A DNA stretch of 63,381 nt, the filler included, from Asterionella formosa (lineage: Eukaryota), in NCBI GenBank assembly GCA_002256025.1. It is 7 parts of 7 records of this genome, joined end to end, with 100 filler letters (N's around TTAATTAATTAA, not from the genome) between each part and the next. Parts side by side here need not be neighbours in the genome. Positions count along the whole stretch, not along the records: positions 1 to 27,253 come from NKIB01001558.1; 6 more parts are not named here. The stretch is one strand, 5' to 3'. Positions 3,001-63,381 of the stretch are shown one piece after another (positions within the stretch are counted from its first letter, which is position 1; each line of letters begins with the position of its first letter). A program made the translations under genes and the position numbers. Under the pieces are notes generated by a model that was not told the origin of the DNA, searched no databases, and saw nothing but the letters and a program-made list of their open reading frames with translations.

Positions 3001-3029
3001 AAAAGAAAGGAATCAATGCGGCCAACAGC

Positions 3030-3581
3030 TGACCTATGGTACAGTATTTACCACGCTAGATCTACTATATCATTAGATGGTATAAGTCCTATATAACGTT
3101 AACCTTATAGGCTCTTCCATACAGACCATATACTTGTTTACTCTCACTGTAGAGATTTACACAATACACACTGTGTATGTATACCACGTCAACCATAAGT
3201 TAAAGGTGTACCCTTTTACATTACGCACACGACTACCATGAAACCCATACGTAGTTACATATACATGTACACGAGAGTGATCATGATTAGTACGTGATGC
3301 TATAGACACGGTTACTAGTATGTAGCTCGTAGTACATATTGCATTATGTACCCGCAGCTATATGTTACGTGATAACTATTGGTGCAGATGTATCTCTAGA
3401 ATAGATGTACCAATGCTAGGCTAAAACAAGACACCTAGCATGGACTCTTGACACCTAGTACATGCCCTTCTCATCAAGACCCTTGTGAGTCCCCTTGGAC
3501 TAGGAGCTAATATAGATACACTAATCATTAAGCTTATAATTACCCAGAACCTACTTGTTGAATCCTGACAACCGTAGGGCA
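3030..3581. mobile_element. Solo LTR (552 bp) with perfect 5-bp target-site duplication
   Basis: Starts TGACCTATGG and ends CCGTAGGGCA (TG...CA, imperfect terminal inverted repeat). Flanked on both sides by ACAGC (3025-3029 and 3582-3586). A second copy lies at 5040-5801. Confidence 0.85.
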
Positions 3582-4329: not shown

Positions 4330-4786
4330 TTAATTTAGTTGAACTACCTACAGTAAAATAGTTGAACAACCTTCAGAAAAATAGTGGAATGGCCTTCAGA
4401 TAATTAGTTGAACAACATTGTGATAATTAGTTGAATGAACTCCAGAAAATTATGTAAACAAATTTTACATATTAAGTGAACTTTATTCTAGAATTAAGTG
4501 AACGAAATTATAAGGCAATGTGAACTAAATTACAGAATTAAGTGAAGTATTTCAAATAATTACATGATCTATTTCAAATAATTACGTGAAGGTGATGACG
4601 CAATATAGTGATGATCAGGAATGCATGCATGATACTTTGATCAAATATTAAACATGATGTATTCATATAATATATAAATATATACAACTACATATTTTGA
4701 TGTATTCAACTAATTCATGTGATGCATTCAAAATCAACTAGGCTCATTTATGTGATGTTCACTTCACGCAATACGCGGCTTAGATG
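4330..4786 (-). mobile_element. End of a repeat family with terminus CATCTAAGCCGCG and degenerate ~22-bp subterminal repeats
   Basis: Reverse complement of 56017-56326 and 59512-59854. Similarity between all three copies stops at the same CATCTAAG boundary. Confidence 0.7.
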
Positions 4787-5039: not shown

Positions 5040-5801
5040 TGACCTATAGTACAGTATGTACCACGCTAAATATACTATATCATTAGGTGGTATAAGTCCT
5101 ATATAACGTTAACCTTACAGGCTCTTCTATACAGACCATGTACTTGTTTACTCTCACTGTCGAGATTTACACAATGCACTCTGTGTATGCATACCACGTC
5201 AACCATAAGTGAAAGGGGTACCAGGGTACCTGGTACCCTTTTACATTATGCACACGACTACCATGGAGCCCATACGTAGTACATATACATGTACACGAGA
5301 GTGATCATTACTAGTACGTGATGCTAGACACATGGTTACTAGCATGTAGCTCGTAGTACATATTGCATTATGTACCCGCAGGTATATGTTACATGATAAC
5401 TATTGGTGCAGATGTATCTCTAGAATAGACGTACCAATGCTAGGCTAAAACATGACACCTAGCATGGACTCTTGACACCTAGTAGTACACACCAATCTCA
5501 TCATGATTAGTACGTGATGCTAGACACATGGTTACTAGCATGTAGCTCGTAGAACATGTTGCATTATGTACCCGCAGGTATATGTTACGTGATAACTATT
5601 GGTGCAGATGTATCTCTAGAATAGACGTACCAATTCTAGGCTAAAACATGACACCTAGCATGGACTCTTGACACCTAGTACACACCAATCTCATCAAGAC
5701 CCTTGTGAGTCCCCTTGGACTAGGAGCTAATATAGATACATTAATCATTAAGCTCATAATTACCCAGAACCTACTTGTTAAATCCTGACAACCATAGGGC
5801 A
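5040..5801. mobile_element. Second LTR copy with an internal ~200-bp tandem duplication and a 15-bp micro-insertion
   Basis: TGACCTATAG...CCATAGGGCA, collinear with 3030-3581. Segment ~5303-5500 is repeated at ~5500-5695. Extra ccagggtacctggta at 5221-5235. Flanks cagcc/caaca are not a clean TSD. Confidence 0.8.
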
Positions 5802-6484
5802 CAACACACACATCTGACAGAGTTCTGGTGTGGTTAGGAACAGCTTTCTCTAGCACCTCCCAACATGGAATTTCTTTGCAGTAGGAAACGACTTTTTTGG
5901 CATTGGTTTATCACTGCCAGGTTCAAATTCCTCAAGAATTGAAAAATTTAGTAATTTTCCTGACTGGTACTAAGCAAGGACCTTAGCTCGTTCATTCCAT
6001 TTTTCGTCTACACCAACCTTTGGGCTTCATTACCGGTATGTCTGTAACACAAGATAGTTGGTGAGATCGAAGTACGGCAAGTATTGTTTAGTATATACTG
6101 GTATTTTGCTACAACATTGCTTTATAATTATGTTCGTATCTTGTATTTTTAGTCCAAAACGTGAATTTAACATTCGCTATCAGTTCAAAATCTTCAAAAC
6201 GTTTCCTCTCAGTTTTTAGGTCCCTCTGGTTGAAAATAACGGTAGTTGTGTCGATTTGCCGCGACTCAAGTGCCAATCAGCTTGATGGTTTATTCCTGTT
6301 TAATTTATACCGGTACAAAGATATCGAAATCAATCCTGATTCTGGCTATTTATGTGGAGCTCATCGCGCATCAAACTTGTTTGATATTAGTACTCTCAAA
6401 AACAGGAAAAGATGATGAATTTGAAGGCAGAGGATATCATTTTGGCTTCCATTGATCCTTGATTGTGCAATTGCAAAACTTATC

Positions 6485-13629: not shown

Positions 13630-15107
13630 GTAAAAACCGTTGTTGTTCCTTGATGGGGACTGAGTAACCCCAGAAACACCAATCTGAGAAACACTGGGAT
13701 TTGGTCAACACAAACTCAAATTTTGGGGTTATGGGTACAACGATTTGTATTGATAAAATAATTTTTTATTATCAGAGCACGCCCAGTAAGACCTTTCGTC
13801 TACTGCTCATAGCAAGGCAACTGTAATTAGTATGTTGAGATATGAGATATGAGATATGAGAAACTTAGCTTATTTATGCTGAAAGTAATGGCCTTGCTTT
13901 CCTGGACCTCCCAGTGGTTTCCAACCAATCCCATGTGCTACAAGTTATTTGTTATCATCAGCCATATGTTGCAATAGATATGCTTGTCTGTTCATGGATT
14001 ATTTTTGGTTCATTATATGGGCTCTTGACTAATAGGAGAAATCAGGAGTTTGGAAACTTATCATGTTGACTTCAGTTTTGGGGAATTTTCCTCAAAATTG
14101 CTGCCTGTGATGGAGGAAATCTCCTGATATCTCTGCAATGGTGCCAAGAAGCTAAACGAGCCTCAGCATGTCATACTAGTGAAAAGAATGGAGCAATTGT
14201 TATGGGAGTAAAGATCAGCAATCTTGCGATTGCAACTCTTATTTGTTGCATGATAAATACAATAATATAGTGAAAATTTATTCTGATATTTTTCTTTCAC
14301 AAAGCTGAGTTTTCAGTGCATTGTCCCAGATTTGGGTTGGAGAAGCTAAATCAACCTGGAGGCAGGAATGAATTCTTTCGGTGTTTAGTCTGCAACATTT
14401 ACTTATAAAAAAATGTTAAAAGGTCTGCTTTAACTCGTTCTCCTTCCAACATAAGTGATGACATGTGGTTTTAAAAAAATTCTTCTGTTGTTAACACCCA
14501 TGCAATCATTTGTGTCATGAGTCCAAATTCTCTCTTTTGACTGATCAGCTTTTGTTGATGTAGATCCAAAATGGTATGGCTGGCTGCAGATAAGAGCAAC
14601 TCAAACACATGTAACCTTCATGTACATTGCTGTCGACTATTAAAAAGTTCATGAGCTCTTGTTCCCTTACCATCACCGTTATTCTTGTCTGCCTTGAATC
14701 AAGGATTAAAAAGCAAGTCAATGGGAAATTGTGTGCTGCCCTAGGCCGAACACAGGCTCATAAATTTTGTGGCGTGGACATCTATTGTCATTCTGAAGCG
14801 TGAAGTTATGAGATTTTGCGCTTTGTGACATTTCTTGGGCATGGTGCTACCCTATGTCTGTCTGGTTCAGTGTACACAAGTAAGCCAATCAATGCATTAG
14901 TACTATGGGTTGGAGCAGATGAACGAATACTATGATCCGGCAAAACCAGAGATGGTACAGCGTTTGTTTTCGGTGACTTGGTGCCCCTTGATTTAGATGA
15001 AAAAATGGGAATTGTTTCTCTAGAAGGTCCCTTTTGTGCTACAGACACGAAAGTAGTGCATTAACTCGCATTAATACGACATCAGCACCTTGGTGTTTCT
15101 TCATTGC

Positions 15108-17474
15108 TCATACTTTATTTTGAGGAACATTTGCCACCTCCTTCTCAAAGTCAAGTCGTTTCGCCTCGATCGCATTCTTGACATCCTCTCGAAATACAAG
15201 TAGTCGGGATAGAGAAGGCCCTTCTGCCATTTTCAAAATTTTTCCCTTGCTCATAGTTGCAATGGACATCGATTTCGCACTTGCCTTGTCCTCCGAGAAA
15301 CCTGCCTCCACAGTTGAAGAAAAAATGGAATTAAGGGGGGTAGTTTCATTGCCGGGAAGCTCTTCCTCTGATGATTTGGACTCTCTCGAAGCAGCATTTA
15401 ATTTTTCAATGCATTTATCAGCGTTAGCGAGTATTACGGCCTCTTTGGAAAACACTCTCCACCTCGGCGCATCATCAAATGAGGTTGGTATTAATCCCTC
15501 ATCAGACTCTGTAGGTGGTAAAGTCAGGAATGACAAACCGGAAACTGAGCTTCCAACCGATTTGACAGATCCAGTAGGTGATGAGGGTCGGGGCAAGGAA
15601 AGAATGACAAGATCACTTGCGTACTGTCGGCGCCTTCGCGAAACATGATAATCATTCCCTTCAACTGGAACTGCAGCTTGACTGTTGGTGCGGCTAGTGA
15701 CAACTGAATAGTCTGAATGACCTGGTTGACTACTCCGAGCTGTCGGCGCGTAGCCACCTTCCTTCTTGTATTCAACCGTATTCGATCCTGGATTATGATT
15801 ATTGTTACCGCTGTCAGCATTTGTTGGCCAAGGAAGGCTGCTCGATATCATCTCGTCAGTGACATGCAACAACGAAAGAGATTTCTCTTCTGGGGACATT
15901 TGCATTATAGTAGTCTTGGAAAGCTTGGCGTTGGAGGAGCTCAGGTTCCTATGGTGCGGTTTTTCTCGCTTAAGACGCTTCAGTATTGCACTCGATTTCG
16001 ACTTGACAAGCAACAGCGAAAGAGATTTCTTCTCTGGAGACATTTGCATTACAGCAGTCTTGGAGAGCTTGGTGTTAGAGGAGCTCACTTTCCTATGGTG
16101 TGGCTTTTCTCGCTTAAGGCGCTTCAATATTGCATTCGATTTCGACTTGACTTCTAGTGGTGACTTTTTCTTGCTCAATCTGTCGACAAACAATTTTTCC
16201 TTGGCAGAAACCTCCCTCTCTTCATCCGCGGAAGTCTCTTCTCTGGCACTTTCACCAACCTCGACAGGGCTGTCCTTCAACATGTCTTCAATAGCTAATA
16301 TTGCCTTCGAGTGAGAGTATATGAATGGTCCGGTTGTAACAGTTGGCTCCGAATTCCGGCGGCGTGCCCGAGACTTGGCTTCAAAGAAACGACGTTGTGA
16401 CTCCATACTGGCAGCACTCAAGAGAGACATACTTCCGACACTGACGCTATCATTGTCGTCATCGTCTTCATCCAAATTTTCAAAATCGAAGAACCAACTG
16501 TTGGTATCCTTTAAATCAAAGGACTTACTGCGCTTTAATCGTGGTTGCTTTAATTCTTTGACCATACCCTGGATATTTTCAAATTCTTTGTGTAGAACAC
16601 GATAATTCTGAACGTCTTCGTATCGGTCTTCGAACTTGCTGGCGCGACGCTTAATCTTTGCTTGATGATTCATTAACTTAACTTGGACCTTGAGCTTGTT
16701 GAACTGAGACAAGGTATGTGGATCTACAGATGTAGGTGTCGGCCGATGTGTCTTCGCTTCTCTTGACTTTGAAGGAGGACTGTGATGGACGATACTATTT
16801 GGCTTTGTGCTTTTGGCATTTCTCAATTTGATGTGAGATTGCGGCCTTGGTGGCGACTTCTGCCGAGTGGAAATTTTCTTCTTCGGAATCATGAGCGGTC
16901 CAGGCTCCATTTCCCAATTGTCGATTTCATTGTCTTCCTCAGTGACTCGATGAAAGGACTCTTCCTCGTCACTTGGTGCATCAGGATCCACCTCCTCGGG
17001 AATTACGTCTTCATCAAACTCTTCGTCAAAGTCAGCGACAACTTGTATGGTGTGTCGTATTGACGGAGATTTCACAAGCATTGGTTCGGTTAGATCTGGA
17101 ACTCGATCAATTTCGTCATATTCCTCTTCTTCCTCCGTGAGATACTGCTGAGACAAGCTCTTGGTCAGTGAAGCGATCTGCGCCAGCATACTTGAAGAAC
17201 TTTCTGAACGTTCGTCGTCGTCGAGCGATTTGATAGCCGACGAGGGAGTCTCAGGTGTTGTTCCGGTGGTATATTCCGACGGAGACGCAAGCCCTCGAGC
17301 GGGGAAGTCATTGAATCCTCTTAAATTTAAGCGTTTAGGTCGCTTATTGTTTGTAGTGTTTGTATTCGCTGACTCGTGGACTAATTGCAGAGGTCGTAGG
17401 TTCCGTTCTTTCGCATTGAGAGGCGGAGAGTGTGAGTTCAAATCCGACTGGAAGATACTCTGGCATTGACCCAT
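15108..17474 (-). CDS. Hypothetical protein with N-terminal MGxCxS acylation motif and a 48-aa tandem duplication
   Basis: Long ORF with ATG at 17474 giving MGQCQS (myristoylation/palmitoylation-like). Acidic and Ser-rich tracts. 144-bp duplication at 15866-16151. Confidence 0.8.
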   Translation of the reverse strand: MGQCQSIFQSDLNSHSPPLNAKERNLRPLQLVHESANTNTTNNKRPKRLNLRGFNDFPARGLASPSEYTTGTTPETPSSAIKSLDDDERSESSSSMLAQIASLTKSLSQQYLTEEEEEYDEIDRVPDLTEPMLVKSPSIRHTIQVVADFDEEFDEDVIPEEVDPDAPSDEEESFHRVTEEDNEIDNWEMEPGPLMIPKKKISTRQKSPPRPQSHIKLRNAKSTKPNSIVHHSPPSKSREAKTHRPTPTSVDPHTLSQFNKLKVQVKLMNHQAKIKRRASKFEDRYEDVQNYRVLHKEFENIQGMVKELKQPRLKRSKSFDLKDTNSWFFDFENLDEDDDDNDSVSVGSMSLLSAASMESQRRFFEAKSRARRRNSEPTVTTGPFIYSHSKAILAIEDMLKDSPVEVGESAREETSADEEREVSAKEKLFVDRLSKKKSPLEVKSKSNAILKRLKREKPHHRKVSSSNTKLSKTAVMQMSPEKKSLSLLLVKSKSSAILKRLKREKPHHRNLSSSNAKLSKTTIMQMSPEEKSLSLLHVTDEMISSSLPWPTNADSGNNNHNPGSNTVEYKKEGGYAPTARSSQPGHSDYSVVTSRTNSQAAVPVEGNDYHVSRRRRQYASDLVILSLPRPSSPTGSVKSVGSSVSGLSFLTLPPTESDEGLIPTSFDDAPRWRVFSKEAVILANADKCIEKLNAASRESKSSEEELPGNETTPLNSIFSSTVEAGFSEDKASAKSMSIATMSKGKILKMAEGPSLSRLLVFREDVKNAIEAKRLDFEKEVANVPQNKV

Positions 17475-18134
17475 GGTGGTGATACGTTGTCTGGAATTCA
17501 ATCCACTTCAAATCCCAACGGTGACTAGAAAAGAAACTGACGTAGAAGCGAGAGGAATTTGGTGTAGAAAATGCGATCGGTTTACAATGCAATCAATTTT
17601 CCTCAACGGTATCTCAAAACTTAGATTACGATTATGATTGATTGATTTGCTTCAGCTGCGATTGCGTGCTATACAGTTCCATATAGTAATCTTCTGGATC
17701 AACAACAAACATAAAGATTCGATGGACCTTGCCTTCTGCAACTTTGAGGTTGAGGATTAACGTAGTATTTGTAAGTATGTTATGTCTAAAATCCAAAGAA
17801 CGGTGATTTAGTCGTTTGTGTATGCTCAATTTTAAGCACTTGGCGCGAAACAGTTGCCGAGACTGTACATCCATACCCGTATACAAACAACCAGGGGGTA
17901 CCTGGTTACCAGCTACTCCGTCAATGAATATTCAGTACTGTACTCCGGTTATTTGCAGACCGACGCAACATAGCACCGGTAGGCACCGGTACAATTTTTT
18001 TGTTTTGAATTATTTTTGACGGACTGAAATCGACAACGGTCGTTAAGCAAGCGTGGTCATTTATATAATGAGTAACGCCGCTTTACCGGTACAAATCAAA
18101 AATTCGATTTTGAAATCGTCGGACGAGGAAGACC

Positions 18135-18426
18135 GCTTTGGTACGCAGGTACCACGTATACCCGGTATTTCAGCAGTATACCGTTTACCTGGTACGAGGT
18201 GGACTACCAGGTACCAGGAACCAGGGTACAAGTCTCACCGTTAAATTTGATCCATCATATTTTCCCAGTTCTATATGTCAGTACTCCACGGTACTACGTA
18301 GCTAGACGTGTACCGTACCTGGTACCAGAACCAGGTAAAGTGCCAGCATCTGGTACCTGGTACCCTGGTACCTTGAGAGTACCTACCACTGTGGTACCTG
18401 GTACCATGGTACCAGGTACCGGTATG
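18135..18426. repeat. Dense array of TA-CC(n)GG-TA / GGTACC micro-palindromes
   Basis: e.g. ggtacctggtaccctggtacc (18352-18372) and ggtacctggtaccatggtaccaggtaccggta (18393-18424). Confidence 0.9.
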
Positions 18427-19429
18427 TGAGAGAGCGGAACGTACTTGCGATCAAGTCGTCAACGACTGATTTAAAAGTAGATACCAAACTGGGTACTTGG
18501 TAGAGAACCGGGTAGGTGTTTAAAAACGGTGAAATATTATGAATATTGTAAAGTACGATATAGCTCAGATGCATCATCATCAGAAGCAGAGAGAAACTAC
18601 AAAAAGAACCCTCGTTGGCCCTTGAGCATAATTATTTAGAAATTCTTTCGATGTATTAATCACCATACCGGTACCCTGGTAGTGTAATCGTTGTTTCTGG
18701 CGGGGGAGCATCTTGCATCATGTTGTTGCCGCCTTGACCAGCATGACGAAAATAGCGGATATCTCTGCGAAAATCGAGAACAACGCCTTCCTATTTGATA
18801 TGTATATCTAGCACAACGTAAATATACAACTGCACAAGAACTATTGGTATAGCACTAGTATTACCAACGAAAATTAAAGTCGCCAATTTAGAAGTTTTTC
18901 ATTTACTTTTAGAAATGATGTTTGACAAAGATTCAACACTTCAAACTAGCTGCACAACAACTACTGCTACACAATATAATTACTAATTGAAACTACTGTG
19001 TTGTCTGAACAACTGTGCGCATCTCAAGATTTGCTGATGTTTCATGACAAGAGTAAATGATGCAATTTTGCTGATTACAATAAAATTGCTTGTTTTGCTA
19101 TCTCGCTCATCATCGTATGCACATACCAGTACAGACCAGTATCTATGCATGATTACTACCAGTTGGCAACAGCAGCATGACCTCCATGGCCAAACTACAA
19201 ACGATTTTTCCTCGTACATATGTTGTGTACAACAGTACAGCCTGCCCCACCCAGGAGCTTGTGTCAGATGACAGTTTGTCAGACACATACTGTAGTAATA
19301 GTTTTCAGACATCATTAACTTCTTGTCTGACACACACAAATAGCATAGTACATATTCTTGGATCAAGATGATGGAAGACAGCATGAAGCTAGAAGACAGC
19401 ATGAAACTAGTACCAGTGTACCATTACTG

Positions 19430-20050
19430 ATTTTACCTACTACTGTTAAACAGTACATCTAATACCTGTGCTTCAAGTGTGGCTGGTGTGATTTTACAAG
19501 ACCGGATTACTTCAGCCAATCTGGAGCAGGTGAGTAAATTCAATTCAACCAATCAGAATATGTGTAGGGCAGTGATGCGGCAACTCACCCTGGAGTCTTT
19601 TCGGACTGAGAACTATGCAGCAAAACATACCTATGCAAGACTCTAACTCTACGAGAACGTTTTGCACACACAAATTCCGATTCCAATATTTTGGCAACTG
19701 TTGAAAAAGCCGATCGGGTCGACTTTTTGGAGGACGATTGCTCTAGCTACATCTGCGGGGTTTCATGAAGATTGAAGTACCCGGTAGACAGCCGTGTACC
19801 CTATAACGTCAGGAGTTAACTTCTGGAGAGAAACTGCAGTTATGTATTGTAGATTTTTAGAAAAGCTTCGTAGCCTCCTTTTTGACTATTTTTGCTATGA
19901 TTACGAATCTGCGATACATAACTGCAGTTTCTATCCAGAACTGATGTCCTTGCTATATCCGAAGATAGAACATGCCCCTAAGTCGACCTATGACTGTAGC
20001 TAAGCATATGCAAAGTGGTCGTATTGCTGGTGAAAGCTAATTTTACCTTT
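19430..20050 (-). repeat. Dispersed repeat, diverged reverse-complement copy of ~36775-37330
   Basis: Shared blocks ctggagcaggtgagtaaa..caaccaatcagaat, ggagtcttt..cggac.gagaa and ggtgaaagctaa, present in inverse order at 36775-37330. Confidence 0.75.
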
Positions 20051-22457: not shown

Positions 22458-23585
22458 TTAATCTGTCCCAACCGTAGCTTTAATGCTGGTGGGAGCAAAT
22501 GTCCACGAAACGTGCGCATCTTCATCGTCATGATGATGCCTAATGGTAGCCCACAAGCTGGCTCCAATCCATGAAATGATATCAGGTTGATGTGGTAATG
22601 TCGAAATGGCTTGTGCGGCAATGGCGAGCGGTGCAAGGGATGTAAACGATCCTGGGACGATAGTAAGATCGGAAGTTGGTTCCTCCTCCAATATTTCCGT
22701 TTGATGTTGAAGTATACTTCGAAGCCTTTCGATAACTCGCCTTCCAATATCTGGAACCAATACTATGGCGTCCCCACAAAATACAATGTTAGAAATAAGA
22801 TCTCGCCTCACTTCGATCGACGACGCTTCGAGGCACTTTACAACTGCCATCAGTATACTTTCTGGATTTCTTTCGTTTAACCAATGCTTATCCATATCTG
22901 TTGTCCATGAAGTATGAACAGTTCCGTCAACCTTGGCAGCACTGTTGTAGCCGCTTTGGACGACTGGACGAAAGTAACATAGAAGTGTAAGAACAATGAA
23001 TGTTTTGATTCCTTCGGCACAGCTCAATGCATGCGACGCTACTCCAACGTAATACCTACCTTGCAGAGTATTTTTCAGAGCATGACCATCGGCATGGGCC
23101 ATGCACCAGGTTTCCGTCATTCCAACTTGCACCACCATTCCTCGTGACCACCCCATGGCAATGGGCACAGTCTCCAATGAGTTGACCAGGACGACTGCAG
23201 GTACTCCCAGATTCCATAATCCTCGCAACACCACCACTTCCCATGTTCGCTCCATGTAGGGAGGACCTATTAATACAACACGCCGGGTGGAGGGGGGTGT
23301 CATGAGTAAATTCCAAATCTGCTCAAACATCGGACCCACGATCTGATGCCATTCCATCTCTGTCTTTGGCGCAGTCTGGTTGTTGTCGTGTCGCCAAGGT
23401 ATAATATGCAGTGGCTTGCATTTTTCGGCATACCCAACCCGAATGAGGTAACTGGTCCATTCGATCACAACTGGAGGTCGTTCTGTGGAAACTGAAAATG
23501 CCGAGCGAGCAGAGGACAATCGCGGCCCTTTTCTCTGCGAAGCTGTCGGAATCACGCGGCTTTTGTGGCTCCTGGGAACAACCAT
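22458..23585 (-). CDS. Divergent actin-related protein (most like dynactin ARP10/ARP11), one in-frame 96-nt intron (22964-23059)
   Basis: Actin-fold motifs PVVIEW..LIRVGYA..PLHIIP, RRVVLI, LGVPAV, GMVVQVG..ET, RRDLISNIVFCG and SWIGASL. GTAGGT...CCAG intron. Start codon is uncertain. Confidence 0.7.
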   Translation of the reverse strand: MVVPRSHKSRVIPTASQRKGPRLSSARSAFSVSTERPPVVIEWTSYLIRVGYAEKCKPLHIIPWRHDNNQTAPKTEMEWHQIVGPMFEQIWNLLMTPPSTRRVVLIGPPYMERTWEVVVLRGLWNLGVPAVVLVNSLETVPIAMGWSRGMVVQVGMTETWCMAHADGHALKNTLQGRYYVGVASHALSCAEGIKTFIVLTLLCYFRPVVQSGYNSAAKVDGTVHTSWTTDMDKHWLNERNPESILMAVVKCLEASSIEVRRDLISNIVFCGDAIVLVPDIGRRVIERLRSILQHQTEILEEEPTSDLTIVPGSFTSLAPLAIAAQAISTLPHQPDIISWIGASLWATIRHHHDDEDAHVSWTFAPTSIKATVGTD

Positions 23586-24366
23586 GCTTTCGATGTTTCT
23601 TCGTGGAATCTTACGGCTCCCTTGAGCGTTCGCTGAATCGTGAAAGGTTCGATGTGGGCTCACGACAACAAAGCAAAGGATCACGAGGGCAAACCAGATT
23701 CGACCACCATGAAAATGTTAAATGAAGTACCGGCTGTTAGAGAAATTATTTTAGGAGACATACCGGTATGAAAATTACCTGGTAGAAAAAAATATATTGA
23801 ATCAAATGAATCAAAAAGAATACGGTATCAAGATGAAAATTCGACAACAAAGCACCACAAGGGACTCATAATTCGATGAAATCTTTTTTCAGGAATGATT
23901 ACAAGTGATCTCAATCACACCGTTTTTTGCATCTACAGCCTATTTGGTCCCTGACATATCCTTAGAGCATCTCCACCATATTGACCAAATACCAAGTCAA
24001 TTGCAGTTGGTATACAAAACACATCATGATGTGTTGCATTGGTCGAAAATACGAAAATATGTTTGCCACTGCATTGGCCAAGTCCAATTTTGCTTTGGTC
24101 TTGGTAAACTACGACCCTCATTTAAACCAAATATTAGAGATTGGTCTAGATTAAGGCTTGCACTGTCAACATAACATCCTTGGTTTAATTAGTGTGCACG
24201 TAGTTACAATACATTTTCAGTACTATCTTCATATAGACAAATACAACCATCAGCATGTCAGCTCAGTGTCAACACATACATGTACGCATAATTTATTCAA
24301 CATCATCAACATTGTCAGGATAGGTTCAGGTGTTACATGGAAGAAGGAAGAGGATAAGGCTCACTT

Positions 24367-26563
24367 ATGGCTATCCCAAGCAAAATGCAGATGCATGAGG
24401 ATCCATTTTTCTTCAAACCATCTATTCTCAGCATATGTACAAAGGACGATATAACAGTAGAACAACAGCAACTTGCATTCAATTATGTAATACGCAACCC
24501 CGAAAGTGGTGATGATGGGAAGGAAGAAAACAACAGCATGCTCATTTTGAGGATTGTAGCTGTTAAATATCCGAGGAAGGATGGCAATGTAGTAATTGAT
24601 GAAATTTTCACAAAGGTGATGACACCTTCTGCCAATAAAAGAAAATGCGACTTTGGTGAAGAAGCAAGGAATATTGACAATAAAGCAGACGATTCTCGTC
24701 GTTCTGACTCACTTTATGATAGCAATCAACCTCGTGTTCCTGGATTTGTCGATTGGTGGATGTCTACGATTGTACGCTGGATGCATGTTGTTGGATTCAG
24801 GTACCAAAAACAGAGCCAAACAATATTTTGTAGATGGTCATGAGAATGCCACAACTTTGGAGTACAGACCAGCATATACAAAGAGGTATCTTGATTTGGA
24901 GGTACAGGCACACAGATGGATTCAGTTCAGTATTGATCAGTCTAAGATACTAGAGGTACAAGTTTATGTTGCAAAAGATACAGGCTATCACTAGAGCAGT
25001 TCTGGTGTAGACATGGTAGAATATCATGTTGATAATGTTGGGAAAATGCCAGATGTTCAGTATGGCGGCAACCTAAGTTTCAGAGAGTGTCTCGATGACC
25101 CTGTGGTTGTTTTTTCGGACAAGATGAGGCCATCTTCAAGCAATTCCTCCTGCCATCTAAGATGTGGGCTGGACCTAGTGGTGAGAGACCACTTCCACCT
25201 AAAGATGAGGTTTCCGGTTTAATGATAAGTTCCCTGCTCTGTCGAGAACATGGACTGATTAGGGAACTAGACATTTATCTTCTAACTCAAGTCAATCATT
25301 CTACACTACATTCTAAGTATGCTGACGAAGAAGCTGCTATAGGAGTCTATGGAAGTGCAATAAAAAAAGATCTAAAAAAATCTCCTTTTCTGGTTTACTT
25401 TGAGTATGGAGAGAGTAAGGAGGGATACTGGAATTTTGCACACATGGTGTGTCAGTTCGAAGATTGTGTAAATGTCCTCAAGATACTACACCCAACTTAC
25501 CATTTTGTATTCCTCTTCGACCAATCATCTGGTCGCTTAAAGCAACGCCCTGATGGTCTTAATGCAACCCGAATGAACAAGTCATTTGGAGGAAGGAACA
25601 TGTTGATGAGAGAAACGAAAATAGAAACAGTACAAGGATACTACCTGGGAACTTACAATTCAATTCTACATCCAGGCGATACTCATGCCTTACTTTTCTA
25701 CAATCAGATCAGGGTCCATTTTGGCTCACCCCTACTCAAGCTGAATTATGTCGCCATGATGTTGTGATTGGAACAAAAAATGCTGACCGAAATCGGCTGT
25801 CATTGACAATGGACCTGCTAAGCAAAGGAGTTAACGCGAAAGGTAAAAGCAAAAGAGAGTTAGTCAAACTATGTACAAAGAATGCCATTGAAACCAAAGA
25901 ACTAATTGAAAGAAAGAAAGAAGGTTGGGTGGGTGGGTGGGTAGGTCGAAGGTTTTGATACAGGTGTTATGGTAGAGAGGATTCATTGATGAGACGAGCA
26001 TTAAAAAAAAGACTTGCTGGAATTTCGGAATCGTTGACAATTCTACAAGCTTAAGACACATGATGACCATGTGCTCCGACTTCCTTCATGAGCTAGGAAT
26101 GATGGAATTCATTGGACAAAAGGTTGGAGTGGAAGTTATTCTAACTCCAAAATGCCATGCAGAACTTCCAGGCGAAGGAGTTGAGTACATGTGGGCATGC
26201 TCCAAGAACCACTATCGAAATTTATCCCTGAAGGAAAAGAAATGAAAGACAAATCTTTCTGCTGAAGCAGTTAGAAAATGTTTGTTGGTCGATGTGATTA
26301 CATTGATGCAAATAAGAAAATTTGCAAAACGAGCGAGACAATATTTGATTGCTTACCATGCAATTGATAGTGGTCAAGTCAACATAATACACTCACAAAG
26401 CGACAGACATGGACCTGTTGCAGTTGAGAAGAAGATTGGCAAGTTCAGAACTCATCGTTGCGCAATGGACTTTGATTTTAAGTTTGTAATCAGAATTGAC
26501 GATGATGATTTATTATCAATATTTAATGATGAACCAGTAACTATTTCTTATGAAGGGAAATAA
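24367..26563 (+). pseudogene. IS630-Tc1-mariner-type DD(E) transposase pseudogene with long D-to-E spacing
   Basis: Motifs across frameshifts: FGQDEAIFKQF (~25114-25146), PKDE..LMIS, EYGESKEGYW, FVFLFDQSSG, LTPKCHAELPGEGVEYMWA.SK..YR, FAKRARQYL.AY, THRCAMDFD. Confidence 0.8.
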
Positions 26564-26648
26564 ACATCTAATATGATGACTCTTCTTTGATGTATGCAAA
26601 ACAAATATTTGGTGAAACTAAATTCTAACATACTACCAGGTACAAGGT

Positions 26649-27253
26649 ACGGGCGGCTACCCAATTGATATTACGGACAAGGACGGACGCGATGGAGTTA
26701 GTATATCAGGCGAGCACCGGATGATACAAACCACGCGACACGAATCGAAGGAGTCGAATCTGAGAATTCAATATAGCGACAACGCGACTATTAAGTTCTA
26801 GCTTTTAGAGTTGAATCGAACAACCAAGAGTCGGCAGCTAAGACAAGGGAAGACAAGAGCAACCACGCGAGGTTAAACAAGTGAATTAGTGCAAGGGTGA
26901 AGCACACAATTCTTTGAATAACGATTCAGAGAAGCAGTCTAAAGCATCGCCAAGCCTTTCGCAATTTATAGTCTAAAATCACCCACCCTACGTCCCTCCC
27001 ACGGCAAAAGCGCAACTCGACTGCCGCTGAACCCGGAGATTGGATCCGCATTTTGAACCCGGATTCTGGGAAAGGGACACGTTTACTTAGCACCGAATTC
27101 AAAAACCATTTATGCTACTTCTACTTAGTATTTCTGGCTCGCTATTCTAGTATTTGATGGGTCGATTTATATATTGCAGCTAAGTACCCACAAAGTTAGT
27201 ACTACACAGACTACATATGGAGAAAGACGAAACGGACGAGACGGTAATTGTGT
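26649..27253. mobile_element. Possible LTR or retroelement terminus truncated by the contig end
   Basis: Abrupt switch to CpG-rich non-coding sequence starting tattacggac, with a minus-strand TATAAAT (26964-26970). No second copy or TSD is visible. Confidence 0.3.
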
Positions 27254-27353
27254 NNNNNNNNNNNNNNNNNNNNNNNNNNNNNNNNNNNNNNNNNNNNTTA
27301 ATTAATTAANNNNNNNNNNNNNNNNNNNNNNNNNNNNNNNNNNNNNNNNNNNN
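27254..27353. other. Artificial contig linker (N44-TTAATTAATTAA-N44); also at 54567-54666, 56327-56426, 58091-58190, 59855-59954, 61619-61718
   Basis: Identical 100-bp spacer with a six-frame stop sequence, occurring six times. Confidence 0.98.
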
Positions 27354-27758: not shown

Positions 27759-28060
27759 CACTGCCCTGCAGGCGTATTTTCGGTTATTTTATCAGTGACA
27801 ACGGAAATGATACCCGCGTGAAAACGTCAGTATCACTGATACCGTTTTTGGAGGGGGCAAAAAAAGGTATCAATTTTGTATCAATGATACAAAATTGATA
27901 CCATCAAGTTACCGTTGCTGATACCGTGTTTTGATACCAACCGTCATTTTTTGCCCACAACCCGGAAATGATACAGCAAATTCGGAATGATAAGAACGAC
28001 CCTTAGCGTACAATACCCTTGATCCTATGTTAATGATAGTTTTTATTTACAGACGATGAC
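27759..28060 (+). mobile_element. Putative DNA-transposon end (CACTG terminus) with clustered TGATAC/GTATCA motifs and an 18-bp-arm palindrome
   Basis: CACTG at 27759. Multiple TGATAC/GTATCA motifs at 27808-27974. Palindrome at 27866-27902. 28000-28057 matches 1793-1846. Confidence 0.45.
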
Positions 28061-34812: not shown

Positions 34813-35576
34813 CCACTTAAAAACTGTAAGCCACCGCTATGACGACTTTTGAACCATAAGGCACCGCTAAACGGAGTAAACGCACGGTTTGAACTTAGTT
34901 TGGAAGATACGTTAATTATTTTCAAGAAGGAATTGTTCAAATTTATATAGCGAGTAAATACGTACGTACTTGTATTTTTGCATTGTGTAAGTTGTTAACA
35001 ACTTATTGCCGCCCAAAGGTTGTTACTGTCGACACGAAATTGCGAAAAATGGAAAATTTCATGTTAACTCTATTGAGCTGCCTGGCATCGTCTTTTCTAC
35101 ACGTGCACATGTACATGGACAATAATATTAATATTCTTCCCATAGAATTAATTTAGCATTATTAAATGCGTGTACGATGTCATTGTGCTTTCGAATACAT
35201 TATTCATCTGAAGAATTTGGTGATGATGCAAGCGCAAAAAGCATACTGCATCGCGCATTAAAGGTAAAGTAACACGAACATAATTTCTGTAGTATAAACG
35301 GAGTAAAAATAATCACGGTTTGGGGCGAAAATATACTCATCTATGGATGAAAAATATGCACTGTAAGCCACCGCTATGCAGAAATCTTAATGACTTAAAA
35401 AAATTAAATCTTCATTGCTTTTTTCTCTGAATTGAAACTGATTACTTATTCGAAGAATAGAGGGCATCGTGAAACATACACTTCGTACTTGCATCAGGTT
35501 TCGATTGTAATTTTACTTGAAAATTTTTTAGTCGGAAGATGGAGTAAAATAACGGTGGCTTACAATTTTTAAGTGG
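34813..35576. mobile_element. MITE with 28-bp TIRs and CCA...TGG termini
   Basis: ccacttaaaaactgtaagccaccgctat versus reverse complement ccacttaaaaattgtaagccaccgttat (26/28). Right flank TA, left flank CA. Internal copy of ctgtaagccaccgctatg at 35362. Confidence 0.85.
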
Positions 35577-39374: not shown

Positions 39375-42300
39375 ATACGGGTACACCTGTTTCTATAATT
39401 AAATAATTAGCATCGAAATTAATCATGGAAAAAGATATTTCATCCCCTCTTTTTGATAAACCTACATAAATCCTTCAAATAAACCACCATTATTTTTTGC
39501 CACCCGAATCTTAGTTGGCTCAATGACACTGCCACAACGGCTGCTACACAAATGCATGCACACAACATTGTGTTCGAATTGACTCTGATGCATCAACCAA
39601 AGCTGTCAGAACCTATTGGGGACAATACAGAGAAGGGAGAGGGAGATGAAATTTTATCCCACAAAAGTCTAATGGATTAAGTCACATTTGATTCTCGAGA
39701 AAATGCTTAGAAAATGTTACCAATTATTCTTAAAAGGATATGGACGTGTTTCTGAAGTTATACAGATGCAGCAACAGTAGATGAATTATCTTCAGATGCT
39801 ATCATGGAGAAGTCTATTATGATAACCGCCTTGATCTGGCTGATGCAACTTGGCAAACTCCTGACAGATTGCCCTCTCAAGGCCAGAGCCACAAACAGCA
39901 CAACGACAAAGTTGTGAAATTTTAAAGGCAAAACTGTTCCAGACCACAACCATGAAATCACTGAACATGTTGCTGGGTAGCCGTTGGCAGCAAGAAGATT
40001 GACAGAGGAGGGGGGGCAGGGGGAGAAGGCGATTGTCCAAGATATGGCCAAAGCTGGGGTAACCAGCTCGCAAATCCAGACTCACTTGAAGTTCACGCAC
40101 AACAAGCAATCAACTAACTACAGCAAGAGAAATTTCGAATGAGAAAGCAGCTACCAGGAAAGAATTTCTCAATGGGAGAACCCCAGTACAAGCACTCTTT
40201 GATTTGATTTCCTCAGCTGGTGGATATACTTTTAAAGTGAAACTGGGCAATAATGGCAATTTTAAAGCATTGTTTTTCTCGAAGGAAAGCATTTTGGTTT
40301 TCTCATGCAGGTTCAAATATGTGTTTATGATGGATTGTACCTGCAAAACAAATCGATTTGGGATGCCGTTACTGAACATTGTTGGGATCACTTCCACCTT
40401 CAAAACATTCAATGCTGGTTTTGCTTTTATGTCTACCGAAAAAGAAGAAGAATTTCAATGGGCTCTTGAAGTAATTGGGTCTATTGTAGAGCCTAAACTT
40501 TTAATCACAGACCAAGAGTTTGCACTGATGAATGCAATTAATAGAGTTTTCCCCAATTGCATACATTTGCTATGCATTTGGCATATCAGCACCAATATTT
40601 TCACAACACAAGGACAGATAAATGGGACTCTGAGGAAAGATTCAAAAACTTTTTATGTCCGACTGGAATTCTCTTCTTTATTCTGGGAAACAATTTGACT
40701 TCAAGCGTGAATGGCAGGACTTCCAGGATAAGTACTACTCCTTTGTAATACATTCATTGGATTATATTGCCAGAACTTGGATTTCCATAAAGGCAAAATT
40801 TGTGTCATGTAGGGCAGATAAACACCTTCATCTTGGGTCGGTTACCACTTCTAGAATTGAATGCAACCATGATATTTTGAAGAATTATCTCAAACATATC
40901 AATTATGACTTGCTTCTGTCTATTCAAAAGATAAACACAATGCTTGACAACCAGCCAAGTCACTGAGATTAATGCTTGATAGGGAAAGATACAATGCAGA
41001 TAGCCCACTGGCATGCATGCTAACCCAATGATTGCTGCGTTGACTCGAGAAATGTCGCAATATGCCATAGATTTGTTGATGGTGGAATTTGAAGCTACCA
41101 AGAATGTTGAAAACCCAATTTGCGACTGCAAAGTCAGCGCAAAATATGGTATCCCATGTAGGCATGATACTATCTACAACAAAAGGCAGATTTCCGGCCG
41201 GAACATTCCAAAGCACCGATTTTCATGAGCATTGGATGCTTCAGCACGATACTCCACCCTCATTAGCCAATGTCTCCTCCTCTCCACAACAAAAAAGTCT
41301 GAATTCAATCTAAGAGACCCTATATTTGGTAGATACTGATCAAGTTCCCGTTTTATTGCAAAGACTTGAGGAAGCCACTTCTCCTCAACCGCTGCATATG
41401 CTTTCCAATCCAGTGGCCAGTGTAGTTAGAAAGCGTGGACGTCCTCCAGGCTCTAAAAACCGTTCTAATCAACGAGATAAGTCAAGATGTGAATATGTCA
41501 GTGGAAATCAGTGTGGTAATCGTTGGGTGAATGGGCACAATTCACTTACCTGTCCCAAATGAACAAATAAACTTACTTTTAGTAAATCAATTATGAATTC
41601 AATGCACTCTGAACTACTCTTTGCATGCTATTCATTGTTATAGAAAGACTCAACAGGAATATACCTGGTGCTTTATTGAATATTATGATCAATATATTGT
41701 AAGTTAGGAGCAAAGAAACTATCTTTGCACAATACCTGTTGATGCCACTAACGCCCATCAGCCAATAGTATTAATTAAAAATTATCAATCAAATCTTTCA
41801 GTACGTTAAAGCTATCCAAAAAATGAATAAATGGACACAATTAGTACCGGTTTTTATTCGTCCATACAGTACAACGGGACCTATCTTTTCGTCAGCTACA
41901 CACCCCGGAACCCTAGGGACTACATGAAAACGACAGGTGGAGAATGCAGAAATCGAACATACCACCTCATCAGGTGTGCTAAGCACTAAGCCATTCCCGA
42001 AAACGCCTATCAGTAGTATTGAGCAATGATCTGTTTTCTTCAGCAGCAGTTCGTGCTAAAAGTCAAATTCATTTAAGTGTTCAAGAGAGTAATTGAGGTC
42101 TAGACTAGCTATAAGAAGTTGCTGATACACTGTGTGATTTGGGTTGGTTATATTTGAAAAAAATGGTCTCCAAACAGGATTTCCTAAGCATGGAAAAGTT
42201 GCCGAAGCAATTGAGATTCGATCCACTGCCTTGGGACCGACTCATCCATTTGTGCTACAAATTCAGCGACTTTTGATAATTTTCCAATTTGCTACACCTG

Positions 42301-56016: not shown

Positions 56017-56326
56017 CATCTAAGCCGCGTATTACGTGAAGTGACCATCACGTAAATAAGCCTAGTTGATTTTGAATGGATCACATGAATTAGTTGAATA
56101 CATCAAAATGCTTACTTGAATATATCTATATATTATCTGAATACATCACGTTAATTATTTGATGAGAGTTTCATGCATGCATTCCTGATCATCACTATAT
56201 TACGTGATCACCTTCACATAATTATTTGAAATACTTCACATAATTATTTGAAATACTTCACATAATTATTTGAAATACTTCACATAATTATTTGAAATAC
56301 TTCACATAATTATTTGAAATACTTCA
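56017..56326 (+). mobile_element. CATCTAAG-terminus element end with five 22-bp quasi-palindromic tandem repeats
   Basis: (ttcacataattatttgaaatac)x5 at 56213-56326; near-identical to 59512-59799. Confidence 0.85.
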
Positions 56327-59511: not shown

Positions 59512-59854
59512 CATCTAAGCCGCGTATTACGTGAAGTGACCATCACGTAAATAAGCCTAGTTGATTTTGAATGGATCACATGAATTAGTTGAATACATCA
59601 AAATGCTTACTTGAATATATCTATATATTATCTGAATACATCACGTTAATTATTTGATGAGAGTATCATGCATGCATTCCTGATCATCACTATATTACGT
59701 GATCACCTTCACATAATTATTTGAAATACTTCACATAATTATTTGAAATACTTCACATAATTATTTGAAATACTTCACATAATTATTTGAAATACTTCAA
59801 TTAATTCTGTAATTCAGTTCACATTGCCTTAAATTTTTGTTCACGTAATTCTAT
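59512..59854 (+). mobile_element. CATCTAAG-terminus element end with four 22-bp repeats
   Basis: Near-identical to 56017-56326 but with a different upstream flank. Confidence 0.85.
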
Positions 59855-61718: not shown

Positions 61719-63244
61719 GACCAGTTGAGCGCGTCGTTTAGGCCGAGAGCCGCCGCAGCACGGCGTGCACGACGTTCCAGCTTCTGGAGCGGCGTCGCGG
61801 TGGGCTTGGCAACGCCATCGGCGCGCGGCAACGGGGTGGAAGGCACATTGTCGAGCCCGACCATGCGGACGACTTCCTCGACCAGATCGGCCGGGCCGTC
61901 GATATCGCGCCGCCAGCTGGGCACCGTGACCGATGGGCCATCGACCTTGAATCCGAGTGAGGTCAGAATCTCCGCCTGCTTGTCCGCAGCAACGTCAATA
62001 CCGCCCAGACGCGCACATAGGGCGGTGTCATAAGTGACGGTCTTCGCCGCCCGTGGCGGTTCTCCCGCGCGGACGATGTCGGACGCTTCACCGCCACAGA
62101 TGTCTAGGATCACCTGCGTGATGATCGCAACGGCATCGTCGAGGAAGGCCGGGTCGACGCCGCGTTCAAAGCGGGTGCGCGCGTCGGAGGTGAGGGCCAG
62201 TGCCTGACCGTTCTTGGCGATCCGCTCGGGCGTGAAATAGGCGACTTCGAGCAGGACGTCAGTCGTGTCATCCGCGCAGCCTGAATGCTCGCCACCCATG
62301 ATGCCGGCAATGTCGTGCACGCCTGCATCGTCGGCAATGACGGTCATATTGGCTGTCAGTGTGAAGTCCTTGCCGTTGAGCGCAGTGACGGTTTCCCCAT
62401 CCTTGGCACGACGGGCAACGACGGCACCGGTCAACTTTGCAAGATCATAAGCGTGGCTCGGGCGGCCATGGTCCAGCATGACATAGTTGGTGATGTCGAC
62501 CAGCGCAGAGATCGGGCGTTGCCCTGCGGCCTTCAGGCGCGCCTGCATCCAGTCCGGCGAGGCGCCGTTCGTCACGCCCTTGATGACGCGACCGTAAAAG
62601 GCGGGGCAGCCTTCGGGATCATCGGTGCGGATTTCGGTCGGGCAAGGGAAGCTGCCTGCGACGCTGGGCACGGAAAGCGGCTTAAGCGTGCCAAGGCCAG
62701 CCGCCGCCAGATCGCGCGCAATGCCGCGCACGCCCATGCAGTCCTGCCGGTTGGGCGTGATGGCGACGTCAATCACGGCATCGTCGAGTTTTGCGTAATC
62801 CGCAAAGGCGGTGCCGACGGGCGCATCGGCGGGCAATTCGATGATGCCGTCATGGTCATCACCGAGTTCCAGCTCCCGCGTCGAACACATCATGCCGTTC
62901 GATTCAACGCCACGGATGGCGGCCTTGCGCAGCACCATGCCGTTGGCGGGCACAACCGCGCCTTCGATGCCGAATACGCCGACCAGACCTGCCCGCGCAT
63001 TGGGGGCGCCGCAGACGACCTGCAGTGGGCCATTGCCGGCATCGACCGTCAGCACCTGAAGCTTGTCTGCCTGCGGGTGGCGGTCCGCCGTAAGAACCTT
63101 GGCGACGGTGAAGCCCTTGAGGCGTTCTGCCGGGTTTTCGATGCCTTCGACCTCAAGGCCGATGCGGTTAAGCACATCGGCGACGTCTTGAATGGTAGCT
63201 TCCGTATCGAGATGGGCCTTCAGCCAGCTGAGGGAGAACTTCAT
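61719..63244 (-). CDS. pheT: Phenylalanyl-tRNA synthetase beta subunit (3'-truncated), alphaproteobacterial
   Basis: [62 protein letters not shown] and VPSWRRDI...DLVEEV. High GC, no introns. Confidence 0.97.
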
Positions 63245-63381
63245 GCGCCGACTCCTCCGCTGAGCGTGGGCACCTCGAGGGCCGCAAATCCATAGTGCTT
63301 GAGCCAGCGCAGATCACCGTCGAAGAAGGCGCGCAAATCATCCATCCCGTATTTGAGCATGGTGAGCCGGTCGACGCCGGT
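63241..63381 (-). CDS. pheS: Phenylalanyl-tRNA synthetase alpha subunit, 3' end
   Basis: [32 protein letters not shown]. Its stop overlaps the pheT start (ATGA at 63244-63241). Confidence 0.95.

Follow-up and report, generated by a model that had tools for sequence, protein, structure and literature searches.

The locus and its arrays

The window, by which we mean the whole 63,381-nt stretch of Asterionella formosa DNA that was analysed, is made up of seven contigs joined by N-linkers, with positions 1-27253 being contig C1558 of an assembly of 68.4 Mb in 15,436 contigs. The isocitrate dehydrogenase encoded in it has mostly diatom proteins among its named close relatives (71-78% identity), and read runs containing the stretch are, where labelled, freshwater, lake or algae metagenomes, in keeping with a freshwater diatom. 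Contig C1558 carries a host gene with a 788-aa ORF, a series of short TA-flanked near-palindromes (hereafter units) upstream of it and, further on, a tract of decayed repeats (Table 1). The core units are TACCGGTA, with CCGG between its two TAs, and TACCWGGTA, which comprises TACCAGGTA and TACCTGGTA; CCCGG, CCCTGG, CCATGG and CCG variants are also found in the main array, which lies 661-952 bp upstream of the first ATG (17474). Repeat cover is absent at 17400-18499 when compared with the sampled genome DNA. Alignments of read-run contigs at 80% likeness were swamped by repeats, the usable parts being RNA contig extents and the 7-nt length differences of run X2 given below. An RNA contig (run X11, record 5) spans 14172-17771, and its end, which is not equal to a start site, is a weak hint that the array probably lies outside the transcript, starting ~360 bp past the contig end.

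Table 1. Features of the window bearing on the origin of the units
Feature	Position	Strand	Remarks
TA.CCAGGG.TA.CCTGG.TA	5219..5235		15 nt gained at a G-TA-CC site
Host gene, 788-aa ORF	15108..17474	-	No Pfam match
Probable 5' leader of the 788-aa-ORF gene	17475..17771	-	RNA-run contig extent, weak hint
Decayed unit pair: GGTACC then damaged TGG-TA-CC	17897..17910		From sequence
Solitary TA.CCGG.TA	18084..18091		From sequence; class matching the CCG-ended family
Main array in single-copy DNA	18135..18426		7 core units, 10 GGTACC
Four-unit chain TA.CCTGG.TA.CCATGG.TA.CCAGG.TA.CCGG.TA	18395..18424		Shared TAs, mixed orientation
Decayed dispersed repeats	18559..20137		Copies 68-83% alike; basis for filled/empty comparisons
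TA.CCGG.TA.CCCTGG.TA	18666..18681		14 nt gained at one TA; absent in 4/4 aligned paralogues
TA.CCCGG.TA gained in repeat	19778..19786		Carried by 0/8 aligned paralogues
Non-autonomous CCA-ended copy, 764 bp	34813..35576		Right flank TA, left flank CA

A sequence-only reading of the window had placed arrays of such units just upstream of host genes, and the units it reported for 17890-18682 are confirmed, with nine core units in this interval against a mean of 0.09 and a maximum of 1 in 300 dinucleotide shuffles, and 12 GGTACC against a mean of 0.51 and a maximum of 5. Adjacent units were also said to have a TA in common and so to form GGTACC chains, and this is seen at 18395-18424, where every TA is shared. 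At the other places that had been listed as arrays units are present, but those at 6032, 6308, 11005 and 39030 are single units and 23760-23790 holds two separate ones. Two further listed sites lie 181 bp from a contig start (27535) and ~1 kb from a contig end (53488), where gene proximity is not judgeable. The array phenomenon is real and is not peculiar to the 17890-18682 locus.

Upstream bias of the units

An independent sample of 614 kb was drawn from six other long contigs, picked for carrying a repeat match, in which 142 gene models were made from ORF and Markov score alone. The sample contains 277 copies of TACCGGTA where 13.4 are expected and 250 of TACCWGGTA where 9.1 are expected, the overall unit density in the sampled contigs being 0.86 per kb. 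Within 1 kb of genes there are 306 unit sites in 104 kb of upstream DNA and 47 in 65 kb of downstream DNA, a ratio of 4.06x (3.58x when counted as clusters) that was reached by none of 300 strand-label shuffles; the 5' bias that had been claimed from the window thus holds in other contigs. When motif density was plotted against gene distance for these models, as the same reading had proposed, the alternative of a uniform distribution was not borne out and an upstream peak was found instead. Density is highest, at 5.3 per kb, 200-300 bp before the ATG; it is 0.05 per kb in genes, 0.3-1.4 per kb on their 3' side and 0.5-1.0 per kb beyond 2.5 kb, and the control words TACGTA and TATATA have no such upstream peak in the 614 kb. 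Divergent spacers of 0.5-1.5 kb carry 4.9 units per kb (8 spacers) and convergent ones 0.5 (6 spacers). Seen gene by gene, a unit lies within 500 bp upstream of 80 of 125 genes and within 500 bp downstream of 22 of 85, whilst 82 of 112 sampled genes have one within 750 bp upstream.

Units gained at single TAs

When 850 kb were aligned all against all, repeat copies were found to differ by 1,662 indel events after collapsing. Seven of the 72 six-nt indels are the change of TA to TA.CCGG.TA, a pattern that random deletions match in 0.125% of trials. TA-flanked CCSGG or CCWGG accounts for 6 of the 45 seven-nt indels, three of them being TA to TA.CCSGG.TA at a bare TA and the other three same-orientation CCWGG gains inside arrays; a lone gain of TA.CCWGG.TA at a bare TA was not found among the 45. 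The gains in the window at 18666, 19778 and 5219 are likewise insertions at one TA that leave a TA on both sides, as is characteristic of an excision footprint. That at 5219-5235, which was scored against one paralogue (window 3025-3479, 89% alike), consists of two units in opposite orientation, and the empty copy is without any unit. The origin of units by insertion, proposed from the window alone, is therefore supported by gains at one TA with TA duplication among repeat copies.

The dominant class of small indel in the repeat copies is a different one, in which 2 bp are duplicated on either side of C, G or GC. It accounts for 250 of the 414 indels of three nt, where chance would give 12%, and for 80 of the 216 of four nt, where chance would give 1.9%; examples are at window positions 1128, 1208, 1364, 1523 and 19749. 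Indels of 3 and 4 nt are commoner among repeat copies than those of 2 nt (149). This class looks like a second, commoner scar type, left by elements that have G...C ends and duplicate 2 bp of target.

Two transposon families with matching ends

The inner bases of the units are the terminal bases of resident elements that duplicate TA, with 70 ends in a CCG-ended and 193 in a CCA-ended family. The CCG-ended family is young, starts TA|CCGTAAAACC with 70 exact ends, and has the short TA-flanked TIR and Pfam DDE_1 transposase (E 1.1e-22) of a pogo element; its CCGTA end presumably recalls Tc2. Judged by its end sequence it is the apparent match of the TA-CCGG-TA units, which are mostly solitary (60 of 277 joined to a GG or CC neighbour). 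Fifty flanks were examined (40 of the 70 exact ends and 10 from further loci, partly overlapping), of which 49 were long enough: none of the 49 ends lies on a core unit and 3 follow GG, whilst 17, two of them near-duplicates, have a unit within 100 bp, which compares with 12.5% for TAs in non-coding DNA and 28.5% for those upstream of genes. Among 41 flanks of young CCG copies 5 are turned towards the start of a gene and 5 towards the end of one, against 59 and 52 of 455 random TAs, a comparison of low power. A third pogo copy, at locus L117, has ends TA|CAGTGAAACC; TA.CAG.TA (114 vs 89) and TA.CA.TA (686 vs 345), both over-represented, may be its scars.

The second family, a candidate source of the chained TA-CC(A/T)GG-TA units, starts TA|CCACTTAAAAACTG; 193 of its 206 exact ends follow TA, giving it the TIRs and TA duplication of Tc1/mariner (ITm) elements. 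A scan of the first DNA sample for TA-flanked TIRs returned 17 pairs, the one with CC ends being locus L008 (2620-3365), at which TA is the sole direct repeat. Copies of 3.76 kb with an ORF of 944 aa occur in public metagenome contigs. In the encoded protein D462, D611 and D649 are invariant across 50 aligned sequences, with DD37D spacing, and the predicted fold (model pLDDT 90) has Mos1 transposase structures as its top matches (E 8e-5), all eight Foldseek matches at E<=0.001 being Mos1 or SETMAR. The aspartates and the model together indicate a DDD/E transposase of mariner fold. The protein has no Pfam family, with 1 of 50 members matching DDE_1 at E 0.085, and the features of pogo (Fot/Passer) elements are not found, there being no Pfam DDE_1 and a spacing of 37 and not DD35D; its FVDEVG and LDGHGS motifs may resemble those of pogo. 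BLASTP of both transposases gave no significant match. In the A. formosa assembly the catalytic core of the CCA-family protein recurs in copies of 94-100% identity, of which two (C5148, C1997) are enclosed by paired TIRs. Of 259 relatives, one among the 120 listed is named, from Fragilaria crotonensis. The candidate DD37D transposase looks intact, and its scar and target preference are therefore open to direct assay.

At C2608:1102-1143 two ends of the CCA family stand back to back with one TA in common, the element's own end (GG-TA) having been used as a target by another copy.

Other sources of the units were considered and rejected. A decayed transposase-like element at 24358-26665 has 151 matches in the assembly and no Pfam match, and its motifs presumably recall IS630/Tc1-mariner; as a unit source its transposase-like region (24358-26560) fails, the TGGCTGGGTGC ends of its copies being unlike the units. 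A search of the A. formosa assembly with Pfam DDE_3 gave no match. The idea that CCTGG derives from CCCGG by CpG decay was likewise discarded, given that the sister product TACCCAGTA has 9 sites against 250 (7 vs 48 when isolated).

Target preference and proposed chain growth

The two families differ in where they insert. GG precedes 134 of 193 CCA-family ends, the background being 7.5% of non-coding TAs and 11.7% of upstream TAs, and 42 of 193 lie on a TACCWGG-TA unit, against 0.9% and 1.8% respectively; in 24 of 193 position -1 is not G. These 193 ends do not represent 193 independent events, as some elements contribute both of their ends and some small contigs may be redundant. At six independent metagenome loci 7 of 8 CCA ends follow GG-TA, with two of those contigs looking collapsed. 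The possibility that GG is part of the CCA TIR was rejected: 59 of the 193 ends are without GG and some elements have it at one end only, so GG belongs to the flank. A preference for GGTA itself is indicated, as 92 of the 134 GG-flanked ends lie off CCWGG units.

The scars carry corresponding signatures. GG stands beside 297 of 500 CCWGG sides and 30 of 46 CCAGGG sides, and beside 65 of 554 CCGG and 12 of 66 CCSGG sides; G is at -1 of 402 of the 500 CCWGG sides, and 202 of the 250 CCWGG units adjoin a neighbouring GG or CC. These flank signatures pair each scar class with its transposon family. The claim that each footprint creates a preferred new target therefore stands for the CCA family, by both its GG flanks and its ends on units, and is not supported for the CCG pogo family on the counts from its 49 ends; since a CCA scar would turn one GGTACC into two, a ratchet is supported for the CCA-ended family only.

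The effect of such a preference was explored in a toy simulation, run on random DNA with 5 seeds and without decay. For GG weights of 15-28, near the odds of about 17-28 that the end counts give, 71-93% of CCWGG units and 12-19% of CCGG units became joined, against 202 of 250 and 60 of 277 observed; without a GG preference 10-17% of CCWGG units were joined. At weight 15 the simulated chains reached up to 13 units and the observed ones up to 6.

Origin of the units

We consider it probable that the units are excision footprints of two DNA transposon families of the Tc1/mariner superfamily, with a target ratchet in the CCA family. Each insertion would duplicate TA, and by the chemistry known for Tc1/mariner elements excision would leave each flank with a 3' overhang consisting of the terminal three bases of the element, and end joining would then give TA-x-TA. 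CCG overhangs could pair over CG to give TA.CCGG.TA, or overlap by one base to give CCSGG. CCA overhangs cannot pair, so they would overlap by one mismatched A, giving CCAGG or CCTGG at random, or butt-join to CCATGG. On the insertion counts the CCA family would prefer (G)G-TA-C(C), and a visit to GG-TA-CC would leave GG-TA-CCWGG-TA-CC, two targets for one, so that the scar doubles its target and chains may grow as a ratchet, as the toy model allows. Any CCGG scar could supply half-sites for the CCA family, and units are probably gained or lost now and then by slippage of 7 nt. The peak before start codons would most likely reflect accessible, old, single-copy DNA together with feedback from the ratchet, and promoter function, though it may exist, is not needed to explain the pattern. 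Some observations sit less easily with footprints. About 200 intact ends have to account for 0.86 scars per kb, the CCWGG gains inside arrays are equally explained by slippage, and the 23 sites of the CCAGGG class are not simply derived. The three-base scar typical of Sleeping Beauty is weak (TA.CCG.TA 73 vs 43; TA.CCA.TA outside the top words), and no site with the element in one copy and a scar in another was seen for the 3 CCA copies checked among the sampled DNA.

Other accounts of the arrays have to be weighed against these points. They might grow mainly by slippage, fold-back or template-switch errors on the near-palindromic 7-mer, transposons having seeded at most the first unit and the CCA family merely using arrays as targets. 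A near-palindromic unit can be copied from either strand, there are three 7-nt gains and one 14-nt gain of the same orientation inside arrays, and a run X2 contig over 15628-18388 is 7 nt shorter than the window, X2 being also 7 nt short over an ordinary TGAGATA repeat region. Slippage minisatellites run head to tail in one orientation; here 32 neighbouring pairs are of the same orientation (p 0.17 against random) and 6 of 10 triples are uniform (p 0.02), but 21 of the 53 pairs are opposed. Moreover units appear at bare TAs without a nearby template, the inner letters CC..GG are constant whatever the flank, and the gain at 5219 put two different units in opposite orientation into a unit-free site, all of which makes slippage an unlikely main route.

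Two further accounts address the upstream position of the units. In one a general promoter factor binds the words, which selection has kept upstream as homotypic clusters, as has been proposed in oomycetes. This would fit the sharp upstream peak, the greater share of genes with a unit close upstream than downstream, and the interpretation of TACATGTA and motif-9 as TF sites (PMC3520976), PsMyb37 being reported to bind TACATGTA (PMC11134190). The positional bias of a TF motif is thus present, but its fixed width and spacing are not: spacers between units vary (0, 1 or 2 nt), whole units have been inserted de novo into decayed, dead repeats far from gene starts, and the flanks of the two unit classes show precisely the difference found between the two transposon families. 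Selection would explain none of these, and as an origin of the words it appears improbable, whilst a factor may have co-opted them later. The other account has scars forming evenly, with the upstream excess left by loss elsewhere through CpG decay in methylated DNA, dilution by young repeats and purging in genes and 3' UTRs. CpG decay does contribute, for the ratio of decayed (TACCAGTA/TACTGGTA) to intact (TACCGGTA) forms is 0.30 upstream and 0.91 in other non-coding DNA, with CpG observed/expected at 0.78 and 0.63 respectively. When decayed forms are counted along with intact ones, however, an upstream excess of 3.8x remains (219 in 92 kb upstream, 187 in 299 kb elsewhere). Over the same 92 kb and 299 kb the CCWGG class, which has no CpG, shows an excess of 3.6x with 129 and 118 sites, and young CCG insertions cluster near units; loss elsewhere is thus very hard to credit as the whole cause.

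Relation to known systems

Footprints of this general kind are known. Tc1/mariner transposases cut the non-transferred strand a few bases inside the element, and joining leaves the terminal bases between TAs (PMC8151067, PMC2874221); described examples are the CAG scar of Sleeping Beauty and the taCATGta of Tc1 (PMC8151067, PMC2874221, PMC3520976). The units of A. formosa share with these the duplicated TA, the terminal bases between TAs and the two alternative orientations. They differ in having 4-5 inner bases and not 3, in their stacked chains and upstream peak, and in their density, the footprints of the available accounts being rare laboratory or locus-level events.

Promoter-targeting TEs are established (PMC7337890), and the pogo-family element Passer inserts with a bias to TSS regions (PMC9976928). 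In the part of that report available, the TA target of Passer also lies within a palindromic consensus, AAGTACTT as compared with GGTACC here, but Passer is DD35D and the CCA-ended element DD37D, and the Passer consensus is apparently unlike its own scar, whereas here the scar junction rebuilds the preferred target. Carrot Stowaway MITEs, mobilised by mariner, are similarly enriched upstream and show TA reuse (292 sites, 1.6%), but this is one site reused across genomes and not a chain of scars, and the available text does not describe a self-made target (PMC6881990). A literature search, mostly at listing level, found no paper on genome-wide footprint arrays in diatoms and none on a scar that rebuilds its own target.

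A likeness in sequence comes from another stramenopile lineage, the oomycetes, in which the promoter motifs TACATGTA (motif-1) and GTACCGGTA / ATACCGGTAT (motif-9, streme-5) include the same TA-flanked palindrome, abundant upstream (PMC3520976, PMC10031896). In the available portions of these papers the motifs are taken as TF sites, a footprint origin having been raised and rejected for TACATGTA (PMC3520976), whereas in the diatom the insertion origin is seen directly. We tentatively suggest, and would sooner expect to see this corrected than upheld in full, that a DD37D transposon whose scar doubles its GGTACC target, with seeding by a second family, writes arrays into most promoters, where they serve as landing pads and as promoter sequence, and that the oomycete TACATGTA and GTACCGGTA arose likewise, TF binding being co-option. 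If this were true, cut-and-paste traffic would be a leading source of new promoter sequence in the lineage (on the 82 of 112 genes given above), and a transposon would build tandem arrays by a target-doubling ratchet, a route distinct from slippage. What promoter motif discovery ranks highest in stramenopiles may then be scars, and the footprint question for Phytophthora TACATGTA, once raised and set aside, is now testable through TA-to-motif gains between repeat copies and matching element ends.

Other mobile elements and features of the window

A number of other repeats were met with. A family with ends near GCAAGTTGCGGTCATTTTGC lies in or beside arrays in many of the 18 ends listed (loci C2172, C4673, C10963, C11728, L014, L023 and L048); its target duplication is ambiguous, with CA, CWG and CCAG readings conflicting between copies. 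A young Harbinger-type family (Pfam DDE_Tnp_4; L137, L146-L155) has dozens of identical copies with ends GGGTCGTTCTTATC and TNA flanks, a CCTGG unit being within 20 bp in 2 of 11 flanks, and related ends occur at window 27990-28004. Tandem repeats of 22-23 bp at window 4335-4731, 56071-56326 and 59566-59806, the latter two near-identical and at contig ends, are probably subterminal repeats of a mobile element. A MULE transposase fragment is found at window 40090-40695 (Pfam PF10551, E 6e-24).

Among the genes, the actin-related one has a 96-nt intron at 22964-23059, as given by an RNA-run contig spanning 21735-23704, and a single RNA contig (9605-10814) covers the DUF3067 gene together with the 3' end of the WW-domain gene convergent with it, reflecting either overlapping 3' ends or an assembly merge. 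The linkers, N44-TTAATTAATTAA-N44, lie at 27254-27353 and in five more places, and the excess of TTAATTAA in the window is an artefact of them. Finally the last contig, 62001-63381, is 64% GC against about 41% elsewhere and is possibly bacterial DNA in the assembly.
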